64,000 nt of DNA from an uncultured delta proteobacterium (GCA_963816145.1 CAWFJP010000015.1:128001-192000); one strand, 5' to 3'. Positions 23,671-63,727 are shown, numbered from the stretch's first letter. Program-made: numbers and translations. The notes: a model not told the origin generated them from the letters alone.

Positions 23671-26600
23671 TCAATGGAAATCCCGGCTCGGCACATTCGC
23701 GGGTTTCAATTCTACGCTCGGTTTCCATAAGCTCTCCGCCACTAGATGCACCACGCCATCTTCGACTTGCAGTTTGCCGGTGATGCCGAGAAAGCTCACC
23801 GTCTTCGCCAGCACCGCGTAGCGTTGGAAAACGCTTTCCCAGATCACCACGTTGACGAAACCGGTTTCGTCCTCCAGTGTCATGAACACCACGCCGCCGG
23901 CGGTGCCCGGCCGCTGCCGGCAGATCACCAAGCCGGCGTAACGAATGGTTGCACCGTTTTGCATCGTCGCCACAGTGCTCGCATCGGGCATACCCTGGCG
24001 GATTAAATCCCGGCGCAGCGGTTCCAGCGGATGGCGCCGCGCGCTGTGCGCTGTCCGCCGGTAGTCCCAACCGACTTCTTCGAAGTCGCTCAAGGGATCA
24101 AATCCAGGATTGGCGCTCCTGCACCGACATCGTCAGCGATTGATCGCGCGTCTGAACCAATCGGCGCACCTCCCACAAAGCGCTGCGCCGCGCTACGGCC
24201 AAACTGTCAAACGCCCCCGCTTCCGCCAGCGCGCTCAAGCTTCCCTTCGTCGAGTCGAGTACGCCGGACGAAATCTTCCAACGAGACGAACGGCTTTCGC
24301 CCGCCGCGCCGCTTCGACATTCCGCCAGTCAGCTTCACCCAAACTTTTGACATAGCGCAGCCCCATGCGGAGGGCGAAGCCGCCGGCACTTTCATGGCAA
24401 CACTCCAGCGTACAATCCCAGTCACTGGTTTGGACATCGATGGAGCGAACCACGACGCGATGGCGCTTGGCGTCTTCGACGATGGTCGCGGGCGTGTAAA
24501 AACCCATCGGCTGGGCGTTGAGCAACGAACAGGAATATTCGGCGTGATAGTGGCACTTGAGCCAGGCGGTCGCATAGGCGATCAATGCGAAACTCGCCGC
24601 ATGGCTTTCCGGAAAACCGTATTCTCCGAAGCCGCGGATCTGTTCGAAAACCCGTTCGGCGAATTCTATCGCGATGCCCTTAGCCTGCATGCGCGTGATC
24701 AAGCGTTCGCGGTGACGCTCCATCCTGCCGGTGCGATGCCACGCCGCCATATCGCGGCGCAGCTGATCCGCTTCGCCGGGCGTGTAATCCGCGGCGATCA
24801 TCGCCAAGCGCATCACTTGTTCTTGAAACAACGGCACGCCGAGAGTTTTTTCCAGTACCGGTTTCAACGATGGATGGGGAAATTCCACATCTTCCTTACC
24901 TTGGCGCCGGCGCAAATAGGGATGCACCATGCCGCCGGTGATCGGCCCCGGTCGCACGATACTGATCTCGATGACCAGATCGTAGAAATTTTTCGGCCGC
25001 AGCCGCGGCAACATCGCCATCTGCGCCCGGCTTTCGATCTGAAACACGCCCACCGTGTCGCCTTTGCAGATCATGTCGAAGGTCGCGACATCACGGGGCG
25101 GAATCAGCGCCATCGACAGCTCGACGCCGCGCTGTTGGCGCAAGAGTTTAAAGCAAAGATCGAGCTGGGTGAGCCCGCCCAGACCGAGCAGGTCGACTTT
25201 AAACAGGCCGAGATTCTCGACGTCCTCTTTGTCCCACTGGATCACCGTGCGCTCGGCCATGGTCGCATTCTCGATGGGCACCATGTCATGCACCGGTTCA
25301 TGGCCGAGGAGAAATCCGCCGGGATGAATCGACAGGTGGCGCGGAAAATCCAAAATCTCGTTGGCGAGCTGGAGCAAATGCTCATGCAGTCCGGCGGCCG
25401 GATCGACACCCAACGCCGCCAGCACTTCCGGCCGGACGTTTTCATAGGACGACAGAAACTTCGCCACGCGGTCGAGCGCCGTCTCGGAAATCCCCAAAGC
25501 CTTGCCGACATCGCGCAGCGCCGAGCGCGACCGGTAACGCACCACGTTGGCGACCATGGCGGCACGGTCGCGGCCATACTTTTGATAAACATGCTGGATC
25601 ACTTCCTCGCGCCGGCCATGCTGAATGTCCAGATCGATATCCGGCGGCTCGGCGCGCTCCATGGAAATGAAACGCTCGAAGAGCAGTCCCATTCGCACCG
25701 GATCGATGGCGGTGATGCCGAGACAGTAACAGACGACGGAATTCGCCGCCGAGCCGCGTCCCTGGCAAAGGATATCGTTGGCCCTGCAGAACTCGACGAT
25801 CTCCCACATGGTCAGGAAGTAGCCGGGATAATCGAGGGCCTCGATGATCTCCAGCTCTTTTTCCAATAGCGCGGCAACCGTTTCAGGAATGAGCTCGCCG
25901 TAACGTCCGCGCGCGCCGCGGAACACATGGCGGCGCAGCCACTGCGCCGAAGTCGCGCCGCCGGGCAGCTTTTCCGAGGGATAGCGGTAACGAATCTCCG
26001 CAAGCGAGAAGTTACAGCGTTCGGCAATCTCGATGGTCCTGTCCACGGCGGCGGGATCGTCGGCGAACAGCCGGGCAAAAGCATAGGGCGCTTTCAACCC
26101 GAACTCGGCATTGGGCTTTAATTTCCGGCCGCAGGCGCCAACCGCAACGCCATGGCGAATCGCCGTCAGGACATCCTGCAAACGCCGCCGCGACGGATTG
26201 TGATAAAGCACTTCGTTGGCGGCGACCAAGGGAATGCCAAAGCGCCGCGCTCTTTCGCGCAAACAGATTTCCTGGGCGACTTCCTGCTCGCAGCGATGGC
26301 GCGCGATCATGCCATACAACCGATCCCCAAAAGCATCGCGCAGGTTTCCGGCAACCTGATCCACATCCGTCTTGCTGTCAGCTAAAACAGTCCTGGCCAT
26401 CCCTCCGTCATTCCGGCGAAAGCCGGAATCCAGGTTGGTCTTTCTTGATCCGCTAGAAACCGCCTGGATTCCCGTTTTCACTGGAATGACGGACATCATC
26501 TCCCCACTCCATAGCGCTATCATTCGCGGCGCATGCGCACATACTTCATCCCAACCGACAGCGCTCTCCCCTTTCTCCGACCGCCGCCGCCCTTTAGTGA

Positions 26601-26889
26601 TGAGCTGGCAAAGGTTGGCGTAGCCGCAGCGATCCTGAGCCAACAGAACGATTGTCGAGCCGTCGTCGACCGAGATCTCCGAACCGATGATCAGCCTCAG
26701 CCCGACTTCCCGGGCCTTCATATGCGCCCGCACCACGCCGTAAACCCCATCCCGGTCGGTCAAAGCCAACGCCGGCAAGCCGAGGCGAACCGCTTCCTCC
26801 ACCAACTCGTCCGGATGGCTCGCGCCTTCGAGAAACGAAAAATTACTTTTGCACCAGAGGGGAACGTAGGCGGACATAGGCGGAAACAA
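23671..26889 (-). CDS. dnaE2: Error-prone DNA polymerase DnaE2/ImuC; three +1 frameshifts at ~24110-24300 as assembled
   Basis: [46 protein letters not shown]-terminal SRDFH typical of DnaE2. Confidence 0.92.
26404..26493. repeat. REP-like doublet inserted in frame in dnaE2
   Basis: tccgtcattccggcgaaagccggaatcca ... tggattcccgttttcactggaatgacgga; translates to VIPVKTGIQ...[10 protein letters not shown]. Confidence 0.85.
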
Positions 26890-35888: not shown

Positions 35889-35911
35889 AGAAAATATGCC
35901 TCGCAGCCAGA

Positions 35912-39976: not shown

Positions 39977-40028
39977 AATCTTCTGCTCGACTGAAGCATC
40001 CCTGAGAGGGACGCCAGCTTACCCACTA

Positions 40029-40748
40029 TCAATTTCCGATTGGCTGCAAGCCGCTTTTTATAATCGCGCTGGCCGCCGCCGGCGACCCGAGGAATTTAAT
40101 CACCGCACGAGCCGTATCGACGTCGGTGGTCGTAGCGGCGATTCCGGCCGAGAACACCGAGACTTTCTGCACTTCCGGCGGCAGCGGCGTGACATGGGCG
40201 ATACCAGACACGGGCATCAGCTCGCTCATCTGCTGGAAACCGATCTCCGCCTCACCGCGCGCAATCACCGCGCCGACGCGCTCGCCGCCGCCGATGAGCC
40301 GGCTCTTGCTCATCACCTGGTCGGCGATCCCTAACCGTTGGTAGAGTTCTTTAGTGAGATAGTCGCCGCTGACGCTGGCCGAGTACGCGATCGACTTGGC
40401 CAGCAAAAGCGTGCGCTTCAACGCATCGATGGAACCGATGTCGGGCTTGGGTGCTCCGGCGCGCACGGCCATGCCGATGGCGGAGCGCACCAGGGGCGTA
40501 TAGCTTTCAGACAAAACCAAACCGTCCTTGATGAAGCCGGTAAGCACACCATCCGCGACAATGATAACGTCAACGGCCTCGCCGCGTTTAAGCCGACTGG
40601 GAATAGAAGTATCACCCGTCCCGATGGAAGTTGCCGCAGTAACGATCTTTTTTTTGGTCAACGCTTCGAGTTGGGGAATCAACTCAAGATACGCCGCAGT
40701 AAAAGCCCCCGAGGTCATCACTCTGATTTCATTGGTCGCAGTATTCAT
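40029..40748 (-). CDS. ModA-like substrate-binding protein
   Basis: SGAFTAAY, GAPKPDI, GEAEIGFQQMSEL. Confidence 0.8.
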   Translation of the reverse strand: MNTATNEIRVMTSGAFTAAYLELIPQLEALTKKKIVTAATSIGTGDTSIPSRLKRGEAVDVIIVADGVLTGFIKDGLVLSESYTPLVRSAIGMAVRAGAPKPDIGSIDALKRTLLLAKSIAYSASVSGDYLTKELYQRLGIADQVMSKSRLIGGGERVGAVIARGEAEIGFQQMSELMPVSGIAHVTPLPPEVQKVSVFSAGIAATTTDVDTARAVIKFLGSPAAASAIIKSGLQPIGN

Positions 40749-40890
40749 GTTTGCTTTGTCTCCGTGGTTGCCGGCTCGAGCCGTAGATTGCAGACGTCCT
40801 TCTTAAAGTTGTTATCCCTGGACACAGAACACAATCAAGTCGCCACATTGTTCTGATTGGGTGGGCTGGATCCGATCCAGCGCCAGCGTT

Positions 40891-41373
40891 TCAATATAAC
40901 GCACCGTTCTTATGTAAGAACCGCCATTTCCCGTCCTCGTCCAACACAGCTTGTAAATCGTCGTCGGGGTAGCTCACGGTGTCGCCCGCGCTACGGTCGC
41001 CCACTTCGAGATAAATAACATCTTCATCCGTTCGGTTGACAAGATGATGGCCGTCTCCAGTACCGGCTTTGAAACCCGCGCACATTCCAGGCGAGAGCGG
41101 TGCCTCGCCGTCATCCGTGATGAGAACCGCGTGCCCCGCCAAGATGTAGACGAACTCATCTTGCTTTGAGTGAGCGTGGCGCAGCGCAGAGGATCCGCCA
41201 GGCGCAAGGCGCGTTAGATTGACACCGAAGTTGGATAAACCGAACGGGTCGCCGAGCGGCCGCTTTTCTCGCCGAGCCATGCGCGAGAAAAATGGCTCCG
41301 GATAATTTGACGGCTTGGTTCGCGGCGCCGCTTCCTGGGCAACGACTGCGGTTGGGAAATTAGCATTTGGCAT
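40891..41373 (-). CDS. Cupin domain protein (last recognisable cassette-like gene)
   Basis: NFGVNL, RHAHSKQDEF, HHLVNR. Confidence 0.85.
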   Translation of the reverse strand: MPNANFPTAVVAQEAAPRTKPSNYPEPFFSRMARREKRPLGDPFGLSNFGVNLTRLAPGGSSALRHAHSKQDEFVYILAGHAVLITDDGEAPLSPGMCAGFKAGTGDGHHLVNRTDEDVIYLEVGDRSAGDTVSYPDDDLQAVLDEDGKWRFLHKNGALY

Positions 41374-41391
41374 AATGCCTCCTACTCATGG

Positions 41392-41520
41392 AGCTAACGA
41401 TCCGGCCCGATAAGGCTCGGCAAGCAAAAGCGTAGCTTCGATCCGCAAAAGCGGATCTTGGCCTGGGCTACGCCGACCGTGCGGACGGCGAAGCCTTTAA
41501 GTTGGCCTGAGTTGTTAGGT
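41392..41520 (-). repeat. attC site (129 bp)
   Basis: AGCTAAC ... GTTAGGT with imperfect internal dyad symmetry. Confidence 0.7.
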
Positions 41521-41778
41521 TTCGCCACTATTGCCTTGAATGCAAGCGACCATATTGCCTTCCGTATCAAAGGCCAAGGCAACGAAACCGTATTGACCGA
41601 TGGATGTCTTCTCTCGTTGCATGCGCCCACCGGATGCCGTAACCCGCTCCGTCTCTACGTCGCAATCCAAGCAAGTGGAGTAAACCAGCGTACTGTTTCC
41701 GCCGGACGGGAAACCATCCATTTTGACTAAGGCACCCGAGGCCCCCACACGGTCCATGGCCATCGGAAAACTCCACAT
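41515..41778 (-). pseudogene. Truncated VOC/glyoxalase cassette gene
   Basis: SIGQYGFVALAFDTEGNM; N-terminus missing, end apparently frameshifted. Confidence 0.65.
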
Positions 41779-41786
41779 CTCCAGTC

Positions 41787-42364
41787 TCAGCGCTTGGCGA
41801 ACTTGAGGTCGTCACCTTTGGCGCGGCGACCGTTCGCACCAACTCGAGTCCGTGCAGGTTGTCGCCGACCCCATCGAACAACCGCTCGCCGCTGCCGAGG
41901 AAGCCGGCACGAGATTGATCTCCATCTCGTCCACGAGGCCGGCAGCGAGATACTGCTGTGCGGCACTCGCGCCGGCGCCGAGCGAGACGTCTTTACCGCC
42001 AGCGGCGCGCCTCGCCAGATCGAGCGCCGTCTCGATGCCGCTGGTGACAAACGTGAAGGTCTCCCGCCTTTAAGTTTAAGCGGTTCACGGGCGTGGTGCG
42101 TGAACACAAAACCGGGTGATGGAATGGCGGATCAACTCCCCACCAACCGGTCCATGGATTCTTGCCATCTCAAGGGCCGGGGTGGCCGCCAAACATGTTG
42201 CGCCCCATCACCGTGGCGCCGATGTTGGCGAGCGATTCCTCGACGACCGGGGTGCTTTCATTGACCTCGCCGCCTTCAAGGCCGAGAAGCGATCGCAACA
42301 CGGCAAGTTGAAATACCCACTCATGCAGACGCCCGCCGCCGACAGTTTGCCCTTTGGCCCACAC
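41787..42364 (-). pseudogene. Fragmented dihydrofolate reductase/RibD C-terminal family gene
   Basis: GGGRLHEWVF and GATVMGRNMF, with further fragments in other frames. Confidence 0.7.
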
Positions 42365-47477: not shown

Positions 47478-47570
47478 GCCTAACGACCCAAGCCCAACGG
47501 CCCCGCCCATGAGGGGCCACGATTGCAACCACAATGCGATGGCCGAGTTCGCCGCAGCGCAAGGTTAGGC
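47478..47570 (-). repeat. attC site (93 bp)
   Basis: GCCTAAC ... GTTAGGC. Confidence 0.8.
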
Positions 47571-52314: not shown

Positions 52315-52405
52315 GCCTAACGGCCGCGACTCAGACGCCGCCGACCACTGCACGCGAACAAAGGTGCACGCTTCTTTGCGGTCGCTCTGAAGCCACCTGT
52401 TAAGT
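52315..52405 (-). repeat. attC site (91 bp)
   Basis: GCCTAAC ... GTTAAGT overlapping the GFA stop codon. Confidence 0.85.
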
Positions 52406-52792: not shown

Positions 52793-52859
52793 ACTTAACG
52801 TTTGAATTCACCGGCCTGCGCGGCTTTTTGCGCAGGTTCGGTGGAATGATGGGTTGGGC
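52793..52859 (-). repeat. attC site (67 bp)
   Basis: ACTTAAC ... GTTGGGC with a clean stem; core is the exact complement of the GFA cassette inverse core. Confidence 0.92.
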
Positions 52860-52889
52860 CGCACTTTCTGCGCCATTTCTATGCTGCCC

Positions 52890-53231
52890 TCAGGACTGCG
52901 GATCGAACCCGAAGACACGTAGCTCTTGATCACAGCGACAGGCCTTCGCGATGCGCGCGGCCCACGCGACGGCTTCTTCACGCGAGGGGAGTTCAAGCAC
53001 AGTGAAGCCGCCGTCAATCGGGGGCGCCCATGGGTAGCCGCCCTCGGCGACTGAGCCGTCGGCCGCTACAAGCACAGGCGGCACGCCTTCGTCGATGCCA
53101 CCGCCGAAAACGTAGACGCCGGCGTCCTTCGCCTCCTCGATCACAGCGTGCGCGTCGCGGCCCACCGCCTCCCACGCGTCTTCGGGCACGACCATCGCAG
53201 CGCTGGGAAAGGAGATCAGGTACTTGGCCAT
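52890..53231 (-). CDS. YCII-related protein (cassette)
   Basis: AGVYVFGGG, GGFTVLELPSREEA. Confidence 0.8.
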   Translation of the reverse strand: MAKYLISFPSAAMVVPEDAWEAVGRDAHAVIEEAKDAGVYVFGGGIDEGVPPVLVAADGSVAEGGYPWAPPIDGGFTVLELPSREEAVAWAARIAKACRCDQELRVFGFDPQS

Positions 53232-53279
53232 GGTGCTATTTCCTTTGGAGATTGATGTCGGTCGTGAAGCAAGTGTGCG

Positions 53280-53377
53280 GCCCAACGCGCCGGCTAAGCA
53301 GCGGCCCGCGCCGAACTGGCGAATCCGTTTCTGATCAGCCCCACACACGGGCCGACTGCTTCAGCCGGATGTTGGGC
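53280..53377 (-). repeat. attC site (98 bp)
   Basis: GCCCAAC ... GTTGGGC; ggctaagcag / ctgcttcagcc L boxes. Confidence 0.9.
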
Positions 53378-53392
53378 TGGGTAGCCTGGACC

Positions 53393-54265
53393 TCATGACG
53401 TCGCCTCGCGGTACCCAGCCGCGATGGCTGCGCGAAATTCCTCGCTCTCGTGGCTCTCGAGATTCATCGTAATCAACTGGCGGAGTGCCTTGGACGAGTG
53501 AGCGAGAAGGTATTCCCCGCTGGGTTGGCCCTGGAAATGAAGAATCCCCGCAAGCGCAAGTTGCCGCTGAGCCGTCCAGAGCCTCCCACTCAAATCGTCA
53601 ACGTACAAAAAGACGGGTCCGCCACTGAATCCACCAGCATCCGGCGAGTCTTCATGCTTGCCGGTGTCCAGCTGAAAGACCTCCACCCAGTTAATGGCGA
53701 CGTCGTCGGGTCGGGCACCTTCCGGGCACGCCACGAAGTGCGACGACACGATGTTCGTGGTAACTATCATGTCAGTCGATCGGTCTTGGAGGCGCCGCGG
53801 AAGGCCGGCGACGATACAGAACCGCCCAGATACGACCCTCGGATTCGCTTCCCGGAGCCGGAGATTGACTGCCGCGATGCCGGGGACGTCTATGAAGACC
53901 TCTGGTCGCGGTACTATCACGGCAAGGTCGAGTTCGTTCGACCGCCAGTTCCGACCACGACGGGAATCGGACCGTACCGTACAGAGCGGCGAGTACGTTC
54001 TCTTCGGGGCCGGTTGTGGTCCGGAGGCAGACTGAGGTCCTGGGAATACAAGACAAGGCGAATCAAGAAGCGAGAGTTTGGTGGCGACATGCGCGGCCGT
54101 TGCGATCGCCCAGGTACCTTCGATAGCGACGATTACGCCAGCCCCGAAGAAGTCAGCGTCTCCTTCCGAGATGAATCCCACGAGGTGTCGGGAGCAGTGC
54201 GCGTAGAGGAGTGCTCTCTCCTCGTCCTTGAGAATTGCGTACTTCGCGTCGGCCTTGGTCATCAT
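53393..54265 (-). CDS. Trypsin-like serine protease-like protein (cassette)
   Basis: TAAHV, DLAV, GGFSGGPVF triad-like motifs. Confidence 0.6.
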   Translation of the reverse strand: MMTKADAKYAILKDEERALLYAHCSRHLVGFISEGDADFFGAGVIVAIEGTWAIATAAHVATKLSLLDSPCLVFPGPQSASGPQPAPKRTYSPLCTVRSDSRRGRNWRSNELDLAVIVPRPEVFIDVPGIAAVNLRLREANPRVVSGRFCIVAGLPRRLQDRSTDMIVTTNIVSSHFVACPEGARPDDVAINWVEVFQLDTGKHEDSPDAGGFSGGPVFLYVDDLSGRLWTAQRQLALAGILHFQGQPSGEYLLAHSSKALRQLITMNLESHESEEFRAAIAAGYREATS

Positions 54266-54283
54266 GCCTCTCAAGTCCCCTCA

Positions 54284-54370
54284 GCCCAACGCCATGCGGC
54301 TAAGCCGTGGCGAATCAGCGAGCCTGTAAGGCGAGCGTTTTCGACATCAGTCTTAAGCCGCGGGTTAGGC
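54284..54370 (-). repeat. attC site (87 bp), family A
   Basis: GCCCAAC ... GTTAGGC; near-identical to the sites at 61282 and 63536. Confidence 0.9.
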
Positions 54371-54749: not shown

Positions 54750-55190
54750 CTAGTCTTTGCCCCATCCGCTGACGACCTCGGGCCGCACCCGGAACTGCAC
54801 CCGTCGCTCTCCCGGGGCGCGATACGGGTATTCTTCCACTCCGAGATACTTCTTGGCAAGGCGGTTGATCCCCGCGCCGGCGCCCTGCTCTTCACTAATG
54901 ACCTGGACCACGCGGCCACGCAGGCCGAGGTTGCGGTAGGGGTTTTCAGGATCAAGGACACTGAGCGCGACGGGGCTCCCGAGGCGAAGGGCGTTGGCCT
55001 TGGTCCGTCCCTCCGCTGTGTTGAGAATGATATCCTCACCGTCCAGATCCACCCACATCGCCGATACGTGAGGTGTCCCGTCTGGCAAAACGATGCCAAC
55101 GTGAACGAGCACCGGCTTCTCGAGCATCTGGCGCTCCTTCGCGGTCAACTGCCGATGCCCCACCGTCATGTTTGGATGCTGCAGAGCCAT
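54750..55190 (-). CDS. PPOX class F420-dependent oxidoreductase-like protein (cassette)
   Basis: DGTPHVSAMW, NTAEGRTK, DPENPYR, LAKKYLG. Confidence 0.85.
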   Translation of the reverse strand: MALQHPNMTVGHRQLTAKERQMLEKPVLVHVGIVLPDGTPHVSAMWVDLDGEDIILNTAEGRTKANALRLGSPVALSVLDPENPYRNLGLRGRVVQVISEEQGAGAGINRLAKKYLGVEEYPYRAPGERRVQFRVRPEVVSGWGKD

Positions 55191-55207
55191 CTCTCTCCTC
55201 CTGTCCT

Positions 55208-55305
55208 GTCTAACGGCTCAACGTTCAGCCGCAAGCCGCGCGCCCGACGTTTCATATTCGAATTCTCGTTGCACGCGGCTTGACGGCTGCAACGTTTTGT
55301 TAGGC
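55208..55305 (-). repeat. attC site (98 bp)
   Basis: GTCTAAC ... GTTAGGC; cagccgcaagccgcg / cgcggcttgacggctg stem. Confidence 0.92.
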
Positions 55306-55318
55306 CAAACTCCCGTAA

Positions 55319-55843
55319 TCATTTGTCTCTTAGGGTTCGTGGAGCTTGAAAATGTTGCGCGCTACGTTTTGCCCAATACGCATGCTGCATTTCTACAAGC
55401 GGGATCAACGCCGCATCAGCGGCATTTATGGTTTTATGTACTTCCAAAGTTCCGCCAAGCAATATCTGTCTATCTCGGAAGACTGTTACGGACTGCGCCA
55501 CCTGAATAGTCGGCCCAGTTGGTCCTGACGCATCAACCCAAGGTTCGTGTTTTGAGTTCATGCCTAGATAGTTATCGTCATGCTCCCTTTTGTTTCGTAG
55601 GAATTGAGCATCTACCGACGCTAGAAAAACATCCATATCAGTCACTGCAACGTTAAGTGTCTTTAGTTTTGACGCCCACCTACAAGCCTTGTAGGCGACA
55701 TTGATAAAAAACTGTTCCTCCATCCGCGATGTAGTGTGGGTAACATGTCCTTCTGCCTTGTATGATTCAAGAAGGCGATTTCCCTGATATATCACCGCTT
55801 GAAGCCAGTAAATCGCTTGTTCAAGATCCTGTAATTCTTCCAT
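55319..55843 (-). CDS. Hypothetical protein, first cassette (AT-rich)
   Basis: ORF starts 10 bp after the GTTAGGC core; ends before attC. Confidence 0.7.
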   Translation of the reverse strand: MEELQDLEQAIYWLQAVIYQGNRLLESYKAEGHVTHTTSRMEEQFFINVAYKACRWASKLKTLNVAVTDMDVFLASVDAQFLRNKREHDDNYLGMNSKHEPWVDASGPTGPTIQVAQSVTVFRDRQILLGGTLEVHKTINAADAALIPLVEMQHAYWAKRSAQHFQAPRTLRDK

Positions 55844-55852
55844 ATACAGATG

Positions 55853-55890
55853 GCCTAACCAAGATTATCGAGTTCCGTATAGACCCGCAG
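55853..55890 (-). other. Putative attI site
   Basis: Minus-strand GTTAGGC core matching the first cassette's inverse core, with no attC-like palindrome upstream; 160 bp after the intI stop. Confidence 0.7.
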
Positions 55891-56020
55891 TTCGGCAGTT
55901 CTTCAGTATAGTATGGTTCGTGGTTTGTCAGTTGGCCTGCTTTTACAATAGGGACCACTGACTTGTAAAGCGTTCTCTGATGACCTAATCCGATAAATAC
56001 CGAAGGCTTCTTCTGTATAT

Positions 56021-57103
56021 TCAGACGCCTTTGATTTCGGAGTTTAATACCGAGCCTAAACTGTCGGCAGGGCTCCGTACTCCCCGTCCACCCCGATTTA
56101 ATACGTGGGTATAAACCATCGTCGTACTGACATCCCTGTGACCCAATAGCTCTTGGACCGTCCGGATATCGTAGCCGTCTTCAAGCAGGTGAGTGGCAAA
56201 AGAATGGCGAAAAGTGTGCGGGCTTGCCGGTTTGGGTATCCCCGCTTTCTGTGCAGCCTCTTTCACCGCTCTCTGTAACACAGACTCATGAAGATGATGC
56301 CGGCGTTTCTCGCCAGTAACGCGATCGGTGAAGTGGTGGGGCGCTGGGAATACCCACTGCCAGCCCCACTCTTTGCCGGCGTTCGGATACTTGCGATCGA
56401 GAGCGTTCGGCAATGCAACGCGACCCAGTCCTTTCTCGATATCTTCCTGATGTTGACCTCGAACCGCTTCGATATGTCTGAATAGAGATTCTTTGATCGC
56501 TCTCGGCAGCATCGTGTGACGATCTTTATCGCCTTTGCCGGCTCGCACGACGATCTCGTTGCGGGAGAAATCGATATCCTTGACCCGCAGATGACAGCAT
56601 TCCATCAGTCGCAAACCACCACCGTACAGAAGTATCGCCATCAAACGTGGCGCCCCGCTCATCCGATCGATCACTTTTTTCACTTCCTCCTTCGTGAGCA
56701 CGACCGGCAATCTCAGGGGCCGCTTCGCACGGACGACGCCGTCGATCAGTCCGATCTTTTTGTCCAGCACTTCTTTGTAAAGAAATAGAAGCGCGTTGAA
56801 GGCTTGGTTCTGTGTCGATGCACTAACGTGGCCGTCGCTCGCCAAGCTTGAAAGAAAGCTCGCGATCTCCGCCTCCGCCATTTCTTGTGGGTGCCGCTTG
56901 TCATGGAAAAAGATATAACGCTTGATCCAATGAACATAGGCTTTTTCGGTCTTATCGCTGTAGTGCCGCGTGCGGATCGCTTGCCTCACTTGGTCGATTA
57001 GTTTTGGTTTCTGACTCATTGGAAGCAGCTGAGAATTCAAGCCACCCTCGATTGCTGCCAGCGTGGGATTTATTGAACTCGGCGCATTGGTGGCGTTAAT
57101 CAT
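56021..57103 (-). CDS. intI: Integron integrase
   Basis: [19 protein letters not shown], IntI-specific [16 protein letters not shown] and [28 protein letters not shown]. Confidence 0.96.
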
Positions 57104-57117
57104 GACATCCTCCTACG

Positions 57118-57417
57118 TCATCCCGCGTAACGCAGCGATTGCTTCCCCACCGGCTGCCTCGCTATATTCTCCTCCCGCTTCCCCTCATACCGCGCCTGCA
57201 AATCGAGCCAGTAGCGCTCCGACATGCCGAAGTAATGCGCCAGTCGGTGCGCGATGTCGGCGTCGATGGCGCGCTGGCCCTGGACGATCTCGTACACCCG
57301 CCGCGTCGGCACACCGATGTCGCGGGCGAGATGCCAAACGCTGATTCCTTTCGGAGCTAAAAACTCCTCCAATAAAACTCTACCTGGGTGCGTCTTCGAA
57401 AAGCGATTAGTGGTCAT
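57118..57417 (-). CDS. higA: HigA-family antitoxin (no adjacent toxin)
   Basis: HPGRVLLEEFL, HTH, YWLDLQARY. Confidence 0.85.
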   Translation of the reverse strand: MTTNRFSKTHPGRVLLEEFLAPKGISVWHLARDIGVPTRRVYEIVQGQRAIDADIAHRLAHYFGMSERYWLDLQARYEGKREENIARQPVGKQSLRYAG

Positions 57418-57452
57418 CGTTACTCCTTGTCTAGTTTACTGAGGTTCAATAC

Positions 57453-57482
57453 GTTCAAATCGTTCAAGCCGTTCAAAACGTT
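57453..57482. repeat. Left arm of a 30-bp inverted repeat (9-bp CGTTCAA units)
   Basis: gttcaaatcgttcaagccgttcaaaacgtt. Confidence 0.9.
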
Positions 57483-57493
57483 TCGGATCGGAT

Positions 57494-57910
57494 TTAAGGT
57501 GTCGAACCTTTGGATTTGTTCGACGCACTATACTTTGGTCCCTTCAGTGAGCTGCGTTTTAGGTAGTCGATCAGGTTACTGATCATGATGGATAAGCGAC
57601 GAAATGATTGGCTGGCATCGTCACAATCTTTCTGCGCGACATAAGCCTGATCAAAAGCTACGTAAAGTTGTGAGCGCACCTCGCCACACGACGCTTTGGC
57701 AACATAAAGAAATTGAATAAACTCTTGGTTTCCGCCGCGTTCGAATCCTTCGGCGATATTGGACATGACCGACATTGACGCCCGGCGAATTTGATCCCGC
57801 AACGCGAAGTCCTTAGCGAACCCGGTGTCTTTGGTCATCTGGTAAATTGCCTTTGTAAGCAGTCGCGCATCTTTCCAAATCTCGAGGTCTTCAAAGTTTT
57901 TCACTTCCAT
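57494..57910 (-). CDS. Four helix bundle protein (23S rRNA IVP-like)
   Basis: FEDLEIWK, DQIRRASMSVMSNIAEGFER, ASCGEVRSQL. Confidence 0.92.
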   Translation of the reverse strand: MEVKNFEDLEIWKDARLLTKAIYQMTKDTGFAKDFALRDQIRRASMSVMSNIAEGFERGGNQEFIQFLYVAKASCGEVRSQLYVAFDQAYVAQKDCDDASQSFRRLSIMISNLIDYLKRSSLKGPKYSASNKSKGSTP

Positions 57911-57934
57911 TGTCTCCCCCTCCTTAACGATTTG

Positions 57935-57964
57935 AACGTTTTGAACGGCTTGAACGATTGGAAC
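57935..57964. repeat. Right arm of the 30-bp inverted repeat
   Basis: aacgttttgaacggcttgaacgattggaac; reverse complement matches the left arm at 29/30. Confidence 0.9.
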
Positions 57965-57971
57965 TCATTTT

Positions 57972-59516
57972 TCATTCGGTCATTCGACCGCGCCCTGTAA
58001 GAAACCACCGCCGTCTCACCCGGTCGTAATAGAGCCAAAGCAAATCGCCGCCGCGGGTTTCGGCGTAGTAGTATTCGCGCTGGATCTCGCGGTTCCACCA
58101 GCCGCCGGCGAAGACGTAGGGGCCGGTGAGTTTGTCGATGTTGCCGTGCTTGGGGCCCAAGACGAGCCAGCCGTCTTCGTGGCTGTGATACGGACCGCCG
58201 GCAAGACGCTGCGGTTTTTGGCTCACGCGGCGGATCAATGTTTTCGAATTGGCGAGGTTCAATTCGTTTAAATCGTTCAAACCGTTCAAAACGTTTTGGG
58301 GAAGACGAATACGAGTCACAGGCTCCCAGGTAAATCTCGCTTCGGGCAGATGGCCGTCGGTGAGCTTGGCCGAGACCACCGCGTCGTCGCCGAACTCGGC
58401 ACGCAAACGCGCCAGCGCGCGGTTGGCGGCTTCGAGATCGCGCGTCGGTTTTTCGTTGAACAAACGCAACTGTTCGCTGGTCGCCGTGCAGGCTTCGGCG
58501 CTGAGTTCGATTTCGATGGCGCCGGCGGCGAGCCGAAGCGACTCCAGGCGCAGCCGGACGAGATCGAGAAGCTGCACCGCATCGAGGGTCGGCACCGCGG
58601 GACGCAGCGATTCTTTGAAACGGTCGCCGTGATCGATCAGCAACGACAACCAGAGAACGACCAGCGCCTGATGGCGCGCGGCGAGTGTGCTCAACAAGGG
58701 ATGGAGCAACTGCTTGATCAAAAACAACAGCCGGGTGCTGTCGCTCTCGGCGTCGTCGAGAATTATCGTCTGGCGCGCCGGTTCCACTGGCGCGTTCGGC
58801 GCCAGCGGCGCCCACAGTTCGCCGGCAGCCATGCGGTGGAGACGATAAGCTTCCTTGCCGAAACGCTCGCGCAACCCGCCCGGCGGCAAGGACAACAGCG
58901 CGCCGACGGTGGTGATGCCGAGCTTGAATAGCGCATCGCGAAACTTGGGCTCGATGTTCAAACGGTTGAGCGGCACGGCGCCGGCCGCCTGCCGTTCTTC
59001 AGCGCCGTTGCGAAAGATGGTGATCCCCGCCTTGTTTTTGGCGATCGCATAGCTGCCGAAGCGGCTGAAACCGACGGCGAGATTGGCATTGAATCCCTGG
59101 GCTCCGAGATCTTGCTGTATAACGCTGGCCCACTGTTTGGGCGAAGCATAGAGACGCTGCAGACCGCTGCCGTTCAACCAAAAGACGCCGGGCTCCTGCG
59201 CCGCCGGCTCGACCTCGGGAGTAAAGCGCATCAGCCGCTCGGTCAATTCGCCCAGCGCTGTTTCACTCTCAGCCGCCGACACTTCGCCGGCGCGCAGCGT
59301 CGACGCGAGGGAGAACGCCGCGGCGTAGCGCAGACCGGGCAGCACCCCCTGCCGGCGCGCGCTTTCATTGACCCACAGCACTAAACCCTGCGGCTTGTCC
59401 TGCGTCACCACCGCCGCCGGATAACCGGCCCAGTCGGGATGACGCCTGAGCAAGAGCTGCAATGGGAACGCCGGCAGATCAACACAGGCCAGCCGGCCCG
59501 CTATAGAGCTCTTCAT
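57972..59516 (-). CDS. imuB: ImuB, Y-family polymerase-like protein
   Basis: LACVDLPAFPLQ, FTPEVE, HLPEARF, GGWW..EIQREYY; follows imuA. Confidence 0.88.
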   Translation of the reverse strand: MKSSIAGRLACVDLPAFPLQLLLRRHPDWAGYPAAVVTQDKPQGLVLWVNESARRQGVLPGLRYAAAFSLASTLRAGEVSAAESETALGELTERLMRFTPEVEPAAQEPGVFWLNGSGLQRLYASPKQWASVIQQDLGAQGFNANLAVGFSRFGSYAIAKNKAGITIFRNGAEERQAAGAVPLNRLNIEPKFRDALFKLGITTVGALLSLPPGGLRERFGKEAYRLHRMAAGELWAPLAPNAPVEPARQTIILDDAESDSTRLLFLIKQLLHPLLSTLAARHQALVVLWLSLLIDHGDRFKESLRPAVPTLDAVQLLDLVRLRLESLRLAAGAIEIELSAEACTATSEQLRLFNEKPTRDLEAANRALARLRAEFGDDAVVSAKLTDGHLPEARFTWEPVTRIRLPQNVLNGLNDLNELNLANSKTLIRRVSQKPQRLAGGPYHSHEDGWLVLGPKHGNIDKLTGPYVFAGGWWNREIQREYYYAETRGGDLLWLYYDRVRRRWFLTGRGRMTE

Positions 59517-60075
59517 AATTCCAGGTCGGACCGCGCCGCTTGTCCTTGAGCACGCGCAAAGCGCACGCGAAGCGATTACCTTCGACGCGTTTTTTCTCGG
59601 CATGGGCGCGCAGGGAAACCAGCGAACCGAGAGAAAAAGCCCCGTGCGTTTTTTCCGTCAAACAAATCAGCGCCGTGTGATGACGATGCGCCAGGCCGGT
59701 CAAGCGCGTCTGCAGCGGCATCGGAATATCGGCAGCGCCGAGATCGAGCACAATGACGCCGAAACCGCCGGAGCGCAGGAGCTTTTCGCCGGCGCGGGCG
59801 ATGCTGTCGGCGCGGGCTAAACGCACCACCACCAACGCCGCCAGATCGGTGCCGCCTTGAGCGACATCCGGCGGATAGAAAGAATGTTCCGCCAAAGTAA
59901 TCCAACCCACCGGCTCGCCATGCGCCTGCGCCTCGCGAATCAAAGTAAACGTCAGCGTCAACGCTGCTGAAGCCGCCGCTCCGGAGATCTCGACGAATCG
60001 CCCGGCGACCTCGTCAAGCGTCCACGGCGTCGCTACAGCAGCGGGACGAAGTCTTTGTGTGGAAGATAACGCCAT
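59479..60075 (-). CDS. imuA: ImuA, RecA-like protein
   Basis: GRFVEISG, FYPPD, LLRSGGFGVIVLD. Confidence 0.85.
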   Translation of the reverse strand: MALSSTQRLRPAAVATPWTLDEVAGRFVEISGAAASAALTLTFTLIREAQAHGEPVGWITLAEHSFYPPDVAQGGTDLAALVVVRLARADSIARAGEKLLRSGGFGVIVLDLGAADIPMPLQTRLTGLAHRHHTALICLTEKTHGAFSLGSLVSLRAHAEKKRVEGNRFACALRVLKDKRRGPTWNYEELYSGPAGLC

Positions 60076-60231
60076 AGATGAAAACTCCAGGAAAGCTGTC
60101 CTGCCTTGAGTGGGACACAAACGAACGGAGATCAGCAACCGACAACAGCTTCAGATCGGCAGGATCGAACTGCTACAGAAAAGTAACGTCGCGTTCGAAA
60201 AATGTAGAAAATGGTGGAAGGGGGAAGCTTT

Positions 60232-60281
60232 ATTTAACGCTATGCCGCTGACCTGGAATCGGGTCAAGCGGTGGGTTAGGC
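60232..60281 (-). repeat. attC site (50 bp)
   Basis: ATTTAAC ... GTTAGGC overlapping the stop codon; ccgctgacc / ggtcaagcgg stem. Confidence 0.8.
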
Positions 60282-60485
60282 TCTGCGCGACCGTTTGTGT
60301 TTTGCGATCAGCTCCCGAACCGTTGCAACCAACTCTTTCGGCACTTCCATGAGGGCTTGAGTAGAATCCTCATATACCGCCTCATCCTCGGCGACCGCCT
60401 CTTCTTCCGTTTGCTGCTCGTAATGCTTGAGCACTCGACGTACTTTTCGCTCGTCCCAACCGGTTGGAAATTTACTCTGTTTCAT
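60276..60485 (-). CDS. Putative antitoxin
   Basis: Small acidic ORF overlapping the toxin-like gene; HYEQQTEEEAVAEDE. Confidence 0.6.
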   Translation of the reverse strand: MKQSKFPTGWDERKVRRVLKHYEQQTEEEAVAEDEAVYEDSTQALMEVPKELVATVRELIAKHKRSRRA

Positions 60486-60778
60486 CTCTTTCCTTTTCTA
60501 CGTAAGCGTCTTCGATAGGCTAATAATGGCTTGCCGCGCAACTCGTATGCTGTAATCACAAAGACGCTGTCCGGTTGCGGGTCTGGAACATAAATCACCC
60601 GAAGATAACGCCCGGCTCGTGTTTTACCTATTGCTACACGTGCCCCTTCCCGGCCGGGACGATCCTCCCCGGGGGATGAAAGCACATCGATAACTTCTTC
60701 CTCATCGATTCCGTGATTGTGGATGTGAGGAACTTCCGTTTGCTGCAGCGCATGGTTAGGCTCTTCTTTCTTCGTCAT
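60482..60778 (-). CDS. BrnT/DUF4258-like toxin with attC-derived N-terminus
   Basis: HGIDEEEV, GKTRAGRYLRVIY, VITAYEL. Confidence 0.65.
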   Translation of the reverse strand: MTKKEEPNHALQQTEVPHIHNHGIDEEEVIDVLSSPGEDRPGREGARVAIGKTRAGRYLRVIYVPDPQPDSVFVITAYELRGKPLLAYRRRLRRKGKR

Positions 60779-60779
60779 G

Positions 60780-61271
60780 TCAAATCTTGGCCAATGCCTC
60801 GCGGCGGCGCTGCCCTGCTAACACATATTGTCGTGAAAGCTCGAATCCCTCTTTGCGCGAAATGTTCGGGTTGGGTGTGCAAGTGATGGATCCATCGGCA
60901 TTTGTCTCAATGATATCACCAGCCGCACGATGAGAGCCAAGCATGTCGTGTCCGAGCTCTTTCTCCAGCGCATCGTAGTTCGGATGCACCGGCAGTATCG
61001 TGATGCGTGATGGAACTCGGCGGCGCTCAATAAAGCCAGACTGGCTACCCCAGCCGTCGGAACTCTTGTAGTTGCTCTTGATGTAGGGGCGACCGCTGTC
61101 ACCGCCTGAAAACTGCTCGGAAAGATAGGCCTGCTCACCAGGTGAAAGCTCCCTGGCGGAGCCGTCCTGATTCACGTAAACAAACTTAAAGCCCGGCTCG
61201 TTACCGCGGCGCGGGACGAACATCCAAACGAGGCCTACGATAACAATGACTGAAATCGCCGCGATGAGCAT
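60780..61271 (-). CDS. Hypothetical membrane-anchored cassette protein
   Basis: N-terminal TM; starts 11 bp after the attC core. Confidence 0.65.
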   Translation of the reverse strand: MLIAAISVIVIVGLVWMFVPRRGNEPGFKFVYVNQDGSARELSPGEQAYLSEQFSGGDSGRPYIKSNYKSSDGWGSQSGFIERRRVPSRITILPVHPNYDALEKELGHDMLGSHRAAGDIIETNADGSITCTPNPNISRKEGFELSRQYVLAGQRRREALAKI

Positions 61272-61281
61272 AGGTTTCTTA

Positions 61282-61367
61282 GCCTAACGCGATGCGGCTA
61301 AGCGTGGCGAAAGAGCGAGCCTGAAAGGCCAGCGCTCCCGACATCGGTCTTAAGCCGCGGGCTAGGC
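61282..61367 (-). repeat. attC site, family A
   Basis: GCCTAAC ... GCTAGGC; homologous to 54284. Confidence 0.85.
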
Positions 61368-61377
61368 GTCAATTTCC

Positions 61378-61791
61378 TTATCCGCGATTCTTACGCTCCC
61401 AAGCCTCTCGTTCTTCACGGCCTTCCCAAATCGTTTCACGCGGAAAGTGTCCTGTGCCAACCCAGCAAAGCAACGGCTTCACTTCTCCGTAATTGAGAAA
61501 ATGCTCCAATGTCTCCGTCGCGAGATCTTCCGAGACAAATAATTCGCGAGGCCATCGTTCCAGAGTCTGCCCACCGAGATTGATTTCAACGCTGGGATTA
61601 GAGAACTCGATCCGAGTCACAAGAAATTCACCCGACGATACGTCGTTCTCGAAACACTGCAGATAGAAGCCTGCGCACTCACGCCAGCTAATGTGAACGC
61701 GAGGGAAATCGCTGTCCGCCCGACGAATTGATGCCTCGTCCCAGACCGCAGCCGATCGTAGCCGCGATAAAACTTCTGAAGGCGGCGGCAC
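61378..61791 (-). CDS. Hypothetical cassette protein, possibly Imm1-like
   Basis: C-terminal LGGQ..E.WP.E.FV...A...LEHFL..G......W; start uncertain. Confidence 0.45.
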   Translation of the reverse strand: MPPPSEVLSRLRSAAVWDEASIRRADSDFPRVHISWRECAGFYLQCFENDVSSGEFLVTRIEFSNPSVEINLGGQTLERWPRELFVSEDLATETLEHFLNYGEVKPLLCWVGTGHFPRETIWEGREEREAWERKNRG

Positions 61792-61907
61792 AACAACCTC
61801 GCTTGTGCTTGAGATAAATGAGAGCCGAAAAGTGTGTCGAAGAGTGTCGGTCCTATCGGTGTACGTCTGACGGACGGTGCGCATGTTCGTTGGCCGGACG
61901 CCAGCCT

Positions 61908-62300
61908 TTACCGCCGGCTTCCGACCGGCAACCATCGGGCAGCAGCATCGGCGCTATCCTCGGGCCGCGTGTTGAATGCAATCGCCGCGCCTGGGGCAGC
62001 CTTGTGGATAGCGTTGATGACGGCTTCGAATATTGCAAGGCGCCGGGGCGGCAGGCGGATGCCGGCTCCGATTACAACACAATCATAAGTCGTCGAAGCT
62101 AATTGACGCTCTGCTGTCGGCCCAGCGGTTTCATCAGGCCGGATGAAACCAACGTCGGCCTCCCATCCGCGTTCAGCAAACTGCTTCAGCGCAACCGCAA
62201 TGCCGGCGCGAACCTTCTCCGCCGTCATACCTGGTGGCAAAGCAGGGTCGGAAAAATCCACAGTCTCCGGATCGTAGCCAATCAACAAAACCCGCGCCAT
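61908..62300 (-). CDS. Conserved hypothetical protein
   Basis: GGAGG RBS; YDCVVIGAGIR, AFNTRPEDS. Confidence 0.7.
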   Translation of the reverse strand: MARVLLIGYDPETVDFSDPALPPGMTAEKVRAGIAVALKQFAERGWEADVGFIRPDETAGPTAERQLASTTYDCVVIGAGIRLPPRRLAIFEAVINAIHKAAPGAAIAFNTRPEDSADAAARWLPVGSRR

Positions 62301-62496
62301 GAGCCCTCCCTCCTTTTCCGTTAGCTTAGTGCAACCGTCTCGGACATACGAGGCAAGCCAATCATAAATGCCTCGCTTGGATCCTGGCCTTTCGACATGA
62401 TTTTCATGACATGCCAATCGTGGGTATTGACGACATAGATGATCTTTCGGTCGGGCGCGGCGGCACAATCCGTCACATCGGTTATGACCTCCGGCG

Positions 62497-62546
62497 GCCT
62501 AACGCGGTGCCGCTGAGCCGGAATCGGGTCCAGCGGCAGGTTAGGC
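62497..62546 (-). repeat. attC site (50 bp)
   Basis: GCCTAAC ... GTTAGGC; homologous to 60232. Confidence 0.82.
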
Positions 62547-62549
62547 TCT

Positions 62550-62813
62550 CTATCGGTAAACGTCTTTTCTGTGGCCAACTTTGACGATGTCGACCAGAAA
62601 TTTCTTATCGTCGATGGAATACAAGATACGATAGTTACCCTCTCGCACCCTGTACCGGTCGAGGTGACCTGATAATTTTTCACAACCAAACGGTCTGGGA
62701 TTTTCACCTAGAGATTGAATCCGTAAGACAATTCGCTGTCGGTCTTTCTTTTGTCCAACCGTATCAATCTCTTTGCTTGCAGATTGCTTGATGACTACCT
62801 TATATCTTGCCAC
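62550..62813 (-). CDS. RelE/ParE family toxin
   Basis: NPRPFGCEKL, YRVREGNYRILY, VGHRKDVYR. Confidence 0.9.
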   Translation of the reverse strand: MARYKVVIKQSASKEIDTVGQKKDRQRIVLRIQSLGENPRPFGCEKLSGHLDRYRVREGNYRILYSIDDKKFLVDIVKVGHRKDVYR

Positions 62814-63030
62814 GCCGTCTCAACGACCTCACCACGGTTTCAAAGTCGACGCTCTTTTCGTGAGCACGTTCTTCAAACGCAGCGAGATCTTCCGCATCCT
62901 CGGCCAACGCCAGTTTCACAGCGTCATTGACCATGTCAGAAATGGAACGATCGGCAGCTGCTGCCTTGAGTCGCAGGGCTCGGTGAATCTCCGGCTCGAA
63001 ATAAACGGTAGCTCGTTTCGGTAAACTCAT
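62800..63030 (-). CDS. CopG/RHH antitoxin
   Basis: KRATVYFEPEIHRALRLKAA; overlaps the toxin start. Confidence 0.85.
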   Translation of the reverse strand: MSLPKRATVYFEPEIHRALRLKAAAADRSISDMVNDAVKLALAEDAEDLAAFEERAHEKSVDFETVVRSLRRRGKI

Positions 63031-63036
63031 ATGGTT

Positions 63037-63065
63037 ATATTAACGTTACAACGTCATAACGTCAA
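63037..63065 (-). promoter_or_regulatory. Sigma70-type promoter of the TA cassette, overlaid by operator-like AACGT repeats
   Basis: Minus strand TTGACG-17 nt-TAATAT just upstream of the ATG. Confidence 0.6.
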
Positions 63066-63076
63066 CGTGGCTAAGA

Positions 63077-63158
63077 GCCTAACGTTATGCCATTGAGCCG
63101 CTATCAGAAAAGGGAATCATCCGTCAAAACTCGTCGTCGGCTCAAGCGGCGGTTAGGA
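63077..63158 (-). repeat. attC site (82 bp)
   Basis: GCCTAAC ... GTTAGGA; ttgagccg / cggctcaa stem. Confidence 0.85.
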
Positions 63159-63169
63159 CCTTTGTTGTG

Positions 63170-63484
63170 TCACTTGGCTTTGAGTCCGTCACGAAAGGCG
63201 ATGGATTCCAATTCGACCCGGACAGCGTCCTCGATTGGAATCACCGGACGGGCCTCGAAGACAAACGCCGGCAGCAGCGAGCAGAACTTGTGGACCGCTG
63301 TGGGATCATCGCAATCCAGCATCATATATCCACCCCAGTCTCCCACTCGGATCACGAACAACTCGATCTTGAAATTGACCGGCGCCTTCCATTGTGTGAA
63401 GACCTCTAGGATCCGCTTCTGGGCGTTCTCGTATTCCATCGGTGAGCCTTGCGGACGTTCGGACCAAGTGAGCATGTACTTCAT
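63170..63484 (-). CDS. DUF3303-like protein (cassette)
   Basis: MKYMLTW, FEARPVIPIEDAV. Confidence 0.7.
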   Translation of the reverse strand: MKYMLTWSERPQGSPMEYENAQKRILEVFTQWKAPVNFKIELFVIRVGDWGGYMMLDCDDPTAVHKFCSLLPAFVFEARPVIPIEDAVRVELESIAFRDGLKAK

Positions 63485-63535
63485 GGGTATTCTCCGTTAT
63501 TGAGGTGATGTGATTGGACGTAATTGTTTCAATCG

Positions 63536-63622
63536 ACCTAACGCTATGCGGCTAAGCCGTGGCGAAAAAGCGAGCCTTTAAGGCGAGCGTTCTCGACATC
63601 AGTCTTAAGCGGCAGGTTCAAG
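63536..63622 (-). repeat. attC site, family A, with disrupted inverse core
   Basis: ACCTAAC ... GTTCAAG in place of GTTAGGC. Confidence 0.8.
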
Positions 63623-63727
63623 TAAAGCCGCTGCGCGGCAGTTAATCCCACCTGACAATCGATTCTATCCTATTACCAGCGTTGTTCGGTAAAAGCTTCT
63701 CCTATCTTTTACAGAAGGAGAAGTTTT

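Follow-up and report, generated by a model that had tools for sequence, protein, structure and literature searches.

We analysed a stretch of DNA of 64,000 nucleotides (the window, G000:C15:128001-192000) from an uncultured delta proteobacterium, a soil bacterium (GCA_963816145.1), in which an integron integrase gene (intI-A) and the mutagenesis genes imuA and imuB are flanked by arrays of gene cassettes. We conclude, with a probability of roughly 0.8, that two co-oriented sedentary chromosomal integrons stand in tandem within this locus and interrupt the lexA-imuA-imuB-dnaE2 operon for SOS mutagenesis in a Binatia-type bacterium. Read along one strand, the whole locus consists of lexA, a four-helix-bundle (4HB) gene, intI-B, attI-B, array B, imuA, imuB, a 4HB gene, a HigA-like gene (higA), intI-A, attI-A, array A, further genes and dnaE2. 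The window contains the downstream part of this compound locus, and integron B lies mostly beyond it. Integron B comprises lexA, 4HB, intI-B, attI-B and about 15 cassettes; it stands between lexA and imuA and its array ends at the attC site 60281-60232. Integron A comprises intI-A, attI-A and at least six cassettes; it follows imuA-imuB-4HB-higA and stands between imuB and dnaE2.

A preliminary description of the window had given the order of the minus strand as cassettes, attC 60232, imuA, imuB, 4HB, higA, intI, attI and cassettes. This order is borne out by the open reading frames (ORFs), the profile scores and the reading of the sites: small cassette ORFs are followed by attC 60281-60232, imuA, imuB, 4HB, higA, intI-A, attI-A, a 174-residue cassette ORF and attC 55305-55208. 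The same description had placed the integrase and imuAB inside one array. This part did not hold: there are two tandem integrons, with intI-B and lexA lying beyond the window, and the "integrase within an array" is the second of the two.

Integrases, attachment sites and mutasome genes

The intI-A product can be aligned over its full length with 2A3V, a Vibrio integron integrase of known structure (residues 8-318, E 1e-88), and the alignment covers the integron-specific extra segment LPxAL..KYPNA..W..FP. A search of the whole genome, followed by alignment, showed that intI-B is intact, 74% identical to intI-A, and keeps all catalytic motifs. Inspection of the alignment found the catalytic Arg-Lys-His-Arg-His-Tyr set in both integrases, with GLRLMEC, GKGxKDR and YTHV among the motifs kept. 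intI-A starts 14 nucleotides after higA and has a good ribosome-binding site. Directly before intI-B stand a second 4HB gene, 90% identical to the first, and then lexA (TIGR00498, 210.7 bits), which is the sole lexA found in the genome. In both integrons intI is transcribed towards attI and the cassettes, an atypical layout, and in neither does intI diverge from the cassettes as is typical.

For comparison we used 80 IntI-A-related loci from public genomes (L numbers) and a separate draw of 41 relatives (G numbers, G000 being the present genome). Next to intI-A there is a putative attI site with a GTTRRRY crossover. Its edge is marked by homology with L016 and L019, which stops at 55856/55855, and by metagenome contigs of X1 and X3, which terminate at 55855. 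Moreover, a motif near attI, TATACGGAAC...TTGGTTA, is common to the window, L016, L019 and L020. The attI regions of IntI-A and IntI-B are of two different types.

Since MAFFT alignments of the attC sites misaligned their 3' arms, a weight matrix with a fold filter was used in place of a covariance model; a relaxed hairpin scan of the contig, which gave 301 clusters that were mostly noise, was dropped. The scan found 20 minus-strand matches in the 26 kb of C15:175492-201562, compared to 95 in the whole 7.8-Mb genome on both strands. Between intI-B and imuA there are 15 matches, and downstream of intI-A there are five, plus one site that was read by eye. Compared with shuffled sequences, the hairpins of the plus strand have DNA-fold z-scores of -3.6 (60232), -5.65 (55208) and -5.13 (62497). 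With models trained on other sites, the minus-strand reading scores higher in all six held-out and all 14 leave-one-out sites. The attC sites are therefore co-oriented, as had been claimed for them, and they form arrays of imperfect RYYYAAC...GTTRRRY hairpins, one to each cassette. Moreover, the cassette ORFs stand before their own attC on the minus strand. Between 47478 and dnaE2 the same scan, at a lax threshold, found no convincing attC.

The profile scores identify a Y-family-like ImuB together with DnaE2, two components of an imuA-imuB-dnaE2 mutasome. The ImuA model NF033429 gives only 25.6 bits with imuA, far under its cut-off of 150, and the name of this gene, whose likely start is the ATG at 60075, rests on synteny. 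The dnaE2 gene follows intI-A on the same strand at a distance of 29 kb.

The array end before imuA and the locus in relatives

In 12 of the 80 loci, lexA, imuA or imuB is found upstream of intI on the same strand. Among loci whose upstream DNA spans 2 kb or more, such a linkage is present in six of nine at an IntI identity of 72% or more, and in one of 51 below it. In the draw of 41 relatives, intI was found in 16 genomes and imuB in 29; in eight, including G000, the two are at most 4 kb apart on the same strand. All SOS-linked intI fall into one clade of 26 rows with a Shimodaira-Hasegawa-like approximate likelihood-ratio (SH-aLRT) support of 98, in a quick tree rather than a careful search. 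The titles of the relatives name Binatia and "delta proteobacterium" metagenome-assembled genomes, and the clade in which the integron is built into the mutasome operon consists of soil and wetland genomes.

The arrangement is seen in several forms; as in the window, the attC sites of the related loci follow intI on its own strand. L016 has a gapless lexA-4HB-imuA-imuB-4HB-higA-intI, L017, L026 and L029 are similar, and L031 has lexA-intI. G017 shows lexA-imuA-imuB-4HB-higA-intI-array and G011 attC-imuA-imuB-4HB-higA-intI-array. In G003, lexA and attC sites are followed by imuA-imuB-4HB-higA-intI-array, with no first intI. G023 carries lexA-intI-attC-imuA-imuB-4HB-higA, then two attC sites and dnaE2, only 4.3 kb after higA, and has no second intI. 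G008 and G024, whose imuA is up to 98% identical to that of the window, have long arrays before imuA, and in them higA is followed by neither intI nor an array. The distance from intI to a dnaE2 downstream of it, on one contig and one strand, is 24 kb in G002 and 33.5 kb in G003. Thus, within one genus integrases and arrays come and go, while imuA-imuB-4HB-higA is in place in every genome where it was recovered. Both the architecture and its conservation can be read directly from these genomes. L020 carries a broken lexA, intI, one cassette and dnaE2, with a 65-bp dnaE2 fragment upstream; none of our conclusions depends solely on the architecture of L020 or on the G010 rows of the draw, the genomes of which are flagged as unpublished. 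G012, G018 and G027 have dnaE2, and imuB was not found in them with the query used; these genomes are not readable as deletion products, because their dnaE2 contigs stop 0.15-3.3 kb upstream.

The junction between array B and imuA was then compared. Both G008 and G024 lose their homology to the window at 60237/60238, the G of the R' box GTTAAAT (G|TT). The junction GTTAAATAAAGCT and the 150-nucleotide imuA leader are common to G003 and G024, whose last cassettes differ. Since a conserved imuA leader lies to the right of attC 60232 and differing cassettes to its left, the site is a fixed array end: the right half-site of attC 60232 with its flank marks the fixed end of array B, with cassettes turning over on the left and operon DNA staying on the right. 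The leader is missing from the lexA-imuA spacer of G017 (L128), as it is in genomes with lexA directly before imuA.

Could the tandem arrangement be an assembly artefact, that is, a chimeric join at a repeated attC in a metagenome-assembled genome? Short-read contigs do break at attC repeats, those of X1 and X5 end inside attC 60232, and the contamination estimate of the genome is 6.72%. However, the junction is bridged by contigs of other samples, namely X3 (record 22, 59265-61415) and X19 (record 12, 59780-60447), as well as L133 and L134. All three JGI metagenome contigs that carry this attC run into the imuA leader, one of them as far as 58143 at 98% identity, so that every contig reaching beyond attC 60232 (two from Logan, three of three from JGI) continues into imuA. 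Moreover, the closest relatives show the same array-imuA junction on long contigs. We therefore regard a chimeric join as extremely improbable, and the misassembly near 60230 that the preliminary description had raised as a way to undo its proposal is not the case.

The cassettes themselves appear to be mobile. Contigs of X1 and X5 contain a precise deletion of a 1491-nucleotide cassette between two attC sites of array A (joint 52796 to 54288). The cassette C15:201550-202028 (73550-74028 in window numbering, beyond the window) is 98.5% identical in G003 (L025:17352-17830), although imuAB of the two genomes are only ~77% identical. This suggests either a recent exchange of the cassette or its strong conservation; in G024 and G008 this cassette is 97.6-97.7% identical. 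Several cassettes are collinear with G024 at 92-98% identity. The deletion joint, the contig ends at 55855 and the shared cassettes point to integrons that are active in nature.

Two direct attC sites can recombine, and an integrase can excise the DNA between them. It had been proposed that the 4.4-5 kb between attC 60232 and attI-A or attC 55208 form a giant self-encoding cassette, or a switch that deletes SOS mutagenesis and the integrase together, by release of a circle of ~5 kb. The geometry of this proposal stands: the block is bounded by attC 60232 on one side and attI 55853 or attC 55208 on the other, and these sites are real, folded and co-oriented on the minus strand. Two intact integrases are present, the deletion of a cassette by attC x attC recombination occurs naturally at the locus, as described above, and a cell that had lost the block would keep intI-B and should be viable. 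However, we found no evidence of excision itself. lexA-imuA-imuB-(4HB)-(higA)-intI is contiguous, with no attC upstream, in L016, L017, L026, L029 and L128. Within the genus, losses and gains affect intI and the arrays but not imuA-imuB-4HB-higA (L122, L124/125, L126 and L127). To the right of attC 60232 the flank is conserved in the manner of an array end, and the contigs that reach this site all go on into imuA. Finally, the block was never met in the context of another array; it always occupies the same operon position, with or without arrays. Joints from 60238 to 55214 or 55859 do not occur among the 15 contig joints listed of 23, from which absence does not follow, as contigs drop rare variants. 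Two joints of X5 (55215 to 63625 and 60277 to 63625) were considered as a deletion of the block and rejected, their short side being just 20-21 letters with unknown letters between; we attribute them to resemblance among attC sites or to a different order of the cassettes.

An excisable unit of this kind is thus improbable, and neither a self-encoding super-cassette nor an evolved switch is supported, the block being inherited in its operon position in relatives. intI-A and imuAB are flanked by directly oriented attC sites because two co-oriented arrays stand in tandem, which is not the signature of a cassette. Array B is a fixed neighbour that belongs to a second integron with its own intI-B, a situation that the preliminary description itself had named as incompatible with its proposal. 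Thus, intI-A and imuAB are fixed genes of the operon and not a mobile super-cassette.

A further possibility concerns the origin of array B. It might not have been built at the attI of intI-B; instead, IntI-A could have put cassettes at a secondary GTT site before imuA, with 4HB-intI-B joining the head later or independently. This would fit G003, in which attC sites, but no intI, separate lexA from imuA and the GTTAAAT junction is the same, and the long arrays upstream of imuA in G008 and G024. It would also agree with the two types of attI regions and with the 74% identity of the integrases, which does not fit a recent duplication. However, an integrase at the head of the array recurs (lexA-intI-attC-imuA in G023, lexA-intI in L031), the frequent loss of intI in the genus explains G003 more simply, and in the quick tree IntI-B lies within the same IntI subclade as IntI-A. 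We consider such an origin unlikely and retain two integrons in tandem, each with its own integrase.

In G008, G023 and G024, which all lack intI-A, homology to the window is lost at 57168-57170, inside the 3' end of higA and 65 nucleotides before the start of intI-A. This common point of loss suggests a shared boundary of the intI-A module.

Predicted regulation and contrary evidence

Upstream of lexA, nine of nine loci carry TTGAC, the palindrome CTGAAA-N4-TTTCAG and TATA. In the present genome a perfect 16-nucleotide palindrome is found at C15:204445-204464 (76445-76464 in window numbering, beyond the window), between the -35 and -10 elements of lexA, and it is the best-scoring site in the genome (33.5, the next one scoring 16.9). 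It resembles the SOS box of M. xanthus, CTRHAMRYBYGTTCAGS, as given in passages of PMC9705874. We regard this palindrome as a candidate for the LexA box of the lineage. Its scoring implies a very small regulon; the near-matches in the genome lie mostly inside ORFs, and a regulon is not definable from them.

We infer co-transcription and LexA control as follows. intI-B would be co-transcribed with the sole lexA from the promoter carrying the candidate LexA box. intI-A would be the last gene of a tight imuA-imuB-4HB-higA-intI unit, the gaps inside the imuB-4HB-higA-intI-A run being 61, 76 and 14 nucleotides. DNA damage would raise lexA, intI-B and probably the array behind them, and transcription would proceed past intI into the cassettes. 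Damage would then induce point mutagenesis together with the shuffling of cassettes.

A number of observations weigh against this reading of the locus. Of the nine close IntI relatives whose flank is long enough, three lack an SOS gene upstream. The attC calls come from our own two-part position-weight matrix and fold filter, not from IntegronFinder's model. dnaE2 contains three in-frame stops within ~45 codons (24093-24237). The DnaE2 of a relative aligns in one frame from 26877 to 23674, and this frame is the same on both sides of the stops, which are either two compensating indels from a long-read assembly error or a real defect. As to regulation, no strong copy of the palindrome is found upstream of imuA, intI-A, intI-B or dnaE2; the best match in the imuA leader (at 60137) scores 3.9, as compared to 33.5 at lexA. 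The upstream region of recA is also without the palindrome, which leaves the assignment of the latter to LexA tentative. It is doubtful whether transcription from the lexA promoter would cross ~14 kb of cassettes to reach imuAB and intI-A, and the conserved imuA leader may hold a separate promoter; a scan with the sigma-70 consensus found no minus-strand promoter in 55000-61500.

Further features, related systems and significance

The features of the locus are collected in Table 1.

Table 1. Features of the locus, listed along the minus strand; positions are those of the window unless marked C15.
Feature	Position	Strand	Evidence or remark
intI-B	C15:202178-203233	minus	TIGR02249 465.6 bits; beyond the window, 14 kb upstream of imuA, same strand
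attC, array B	63536..63622	minus	weight matrix and hairpin scan, leave-one-out orientation test
attC, array B	63077..63159	minus	weight matrix and hairpin scan, orientation test
ParE-toxin ORF	62550-62813		PF05016 37.1 bits; just upstream of attC 62497
attC, array B, 50 nt	62497..62546	minus	scan, orientation test, fold z -5.13
attC, array B	61282..61367	minus	scan, orientation test
Last cassette of array B	60276..61271	minus	three ORFs; 97-98% identical copies in 3 JGI contigs
163-aa ORF of last cassette	60780-61271		
DUF4258 toxin-like ORF of last cassette	60482-60778		PF14076 31.3 bits
69-aa ORF of last cassette	60276-60485		overlapping
Terminal attC of array B	60232..60281	minus	R'' GCCTAAC 60281-60275, R' GTTAAAT 60238-60232
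imuA leader	60076..60231	minus	conserved in six same-genus genomes with array or attC upstream
imuA (RecA-fold, ImuA-like)	59479..60138	minus	PF00154 33.1 bits (cut-off 27); single copy in genome
imuB (Y-family-like)	57972..59603	minus	PF00817 41.5 bits; single copy in genome
4HB unit with repeats	57444..57964	minus	inverted arrays of GTTCAA/TTGAAC units on both sides
4HB gene (23S rRNA IVS-protein family)	57494-57910	minus	PF05635 116 bits; TIGR02436 110.8 bits
HigA-like helix-turn-helix gene	57118..57417	minus	TIGR02607 77.7 bits; 14 nt upstream of intI-A
intI-A	57103-56021	minus	TIGR02249 468 bits, cut-off 265; 2A3V alignment
attI-A (putative)	55853-56020	minus	crossover GTTAGGC 55859-55853
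First cassette ORF of array A	55319..55843	minus	174 aa, no family
attC, array A	55208..55305	minus	GCCTAAC...GTTAGAC, R' 55214-55208; scan, orientation, fold; contigs end or diverge at 55215
attC, array A	54284..54370	minus	scan, orientation test; joint 52796 to 54288 in X1 and X5
attC, array A	53280..53377	minus	scan, orientation test
attC, array A, GCCCAAC...GTTAAGT	52794..52858	minus	missed by scanner, read by eye; one end of 1491-nt deletion joint
attC, array A	52315..52405	minus	weaker score; scan, orientation test
Last attC detected in array A	47478..47570	minus	scan, orientation test
dnaE2 (error-prone polymerase)	23671..26889	minus	NF004225 1141.8 bits, cut-off 939

Each 4HB gene, including that at L009:11280-11830, lies between inverted arrays of three to four GTTCAA/TTGAAC units. 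In metagenome contigs, the depth of the 4HB unit of the window is ~4-fold above that of its flanks and its presence is variable; many unlike loose ends occur at 57444, 57453, 57926 and 57964, together with joints that skip 443-534 nucleotides. The unit resembles a small element whose presence at hairpin repeats varies and which occurs in many contexts. An in-frame GTTTGAAC-type repeat, translated as PQNVLNGLNDLNELNL, is also found inside imuB at ~58250-58295, where the alignments of relatives break, and the genome holds 141 clusters of at least three such hexamers (GTTCAA/TTGAAC type). A HigA-like gene upstream of intI occurs also in L016, L025, L029, L069, L127 and L128; no toxin gene adjoins it in the window.

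The last cassette before imuA contains a DUF4258 ORF with an overlapping 69-residue ORF (60276-60778), and a ParE-family toxin lies two cassettes upstream (62550-62813). These toxin-antitoxin-like cassettes could stabilise the array end. Outside the arrays, a perfect GCCTAAC...GTTAGGC hairpin at 8456-8537, inside a 1101-residue non-ribosomal peptide synthetase ORF, is probably a chance or degenerate attC-like site. Further small attC-like clusters are found at G000:C14:443047-445575, near a broken intI fragment (C14:442293-442409), and at G000:C30:522802-523619; they look like attC clusters without an integrase. The region 32652-42342, between array A and dnaE2, is 73-88% conserved in G008 and G024, and no attC can be detected in it. 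It represents either ordinary chromosomal DNA or cargo fixed long ago, and it now holds imuB and dnaE2 apart. The ORF 45273-46736 matches the N-terminal half alone (profile 19-468 of 867) of a magnesium-translocating P-type ATPase and is probably a truncated or frameshifted gene. An Rfam search of the whole window gave zero matches.

The adaptive mutagenesis cassette lexA-imuA-imuB-dnaE2 is said to have been described by Erill et al. in 2006. The present locus has the same four genes in the same order and on the same strand, with a palindrome in the lexA promoter. Here, however, the operon is split, with 14 kb from lexA to imuA and 29 kb from intI-A to dnaE2, and 4HB and HigA-like genes are intercalated. 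Integrase expression was reportedly tied to the SOS response by Guerin et al. in 2009. Control of intI by LexA is already known (Cambray et al., 2011; PMC3108266). In SOS-controlled integrons of the known kind, damage triggers cassette shuffling via integrase expression, as it would here, but the LexA box lies over intI's own promoter and intI diverges from the cassettes, whereas here intI-B stands inside the lexA transcription unit, intI-A comes last after imuAB, and each integrase gene is directed into its own array. In the main text of PMC3108266, supplements apart, none of the words imuA, dnaE2, operon and inverted is used.

Atypical Treponema integrons resemble the present ones in having intI, attI and cassettes on one strand, but the Treponema passages of the source (PMC3607928) mention neither an SOS-operon context nor a tandem pair. 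Clusters of attC sites lacking an integrase have been termed CALIN in passages of PMC7923331. Taken alone, the window looks as if it had such an integrase-less cluster before imuA, and G003, G008 and G024 may truly be so; in the present genome, in contrast, an intact intI-B stands at the head of the array, 14 kb further up. Finally, integron-like elements insert into rulB, a Y-family polymerase gene of Pseudomonas (passages of PMC4542609). Like the present locus, these tie a recombinase-bearing element to an error-prone polymerase locus; as described there, they are not attC/IntI systems and disrupt the polymerase gene, whereas here true integrons lie between intact genes. In the literature searched on integrons with imuA, imuB or dnaE2, on Binatia and on the "mutagenesis cassette", we found no published description of intI adjoining imuAB. 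What is new here is that two integrons in tandem split the operon and that either integrase is variably lost.

There is a slim chance that imuA-imuB-4HB-higA-intI-A is nevertheless a true integrase substrate, released now and then upon SOS induction as a ~5-kb circle with its own integrase and attI, and that the arrays also act as adjustable spacers in the mutasome operon. If so, error-prone repair could be turned off heritably, as by a switch, the circle could enter the attI of a relative, and the arrays between the mutasome genes would set the output of imuAB and dnaE2 after damage.

Under our preferred reading, a mutagenesis operon interrupted by two tandem integrons, the tandem arrangement alone can make an integrase appear inside a cassette array. 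Integrons and the ImuA-ImuB-DnaE2 mutasome are two well-known routes to variation in times of damage, normally seen as separate modules that share just a LexA box. Here the integron platform is a physical part of the mutasome operon, twice in this genome. This makes testable whether cassette shuffling and error-prone synthesis are co-transcribed, how array-pointing integrases seemingly without a promoter of their own are expressed, and what effect the arrays have on the genes downstream.

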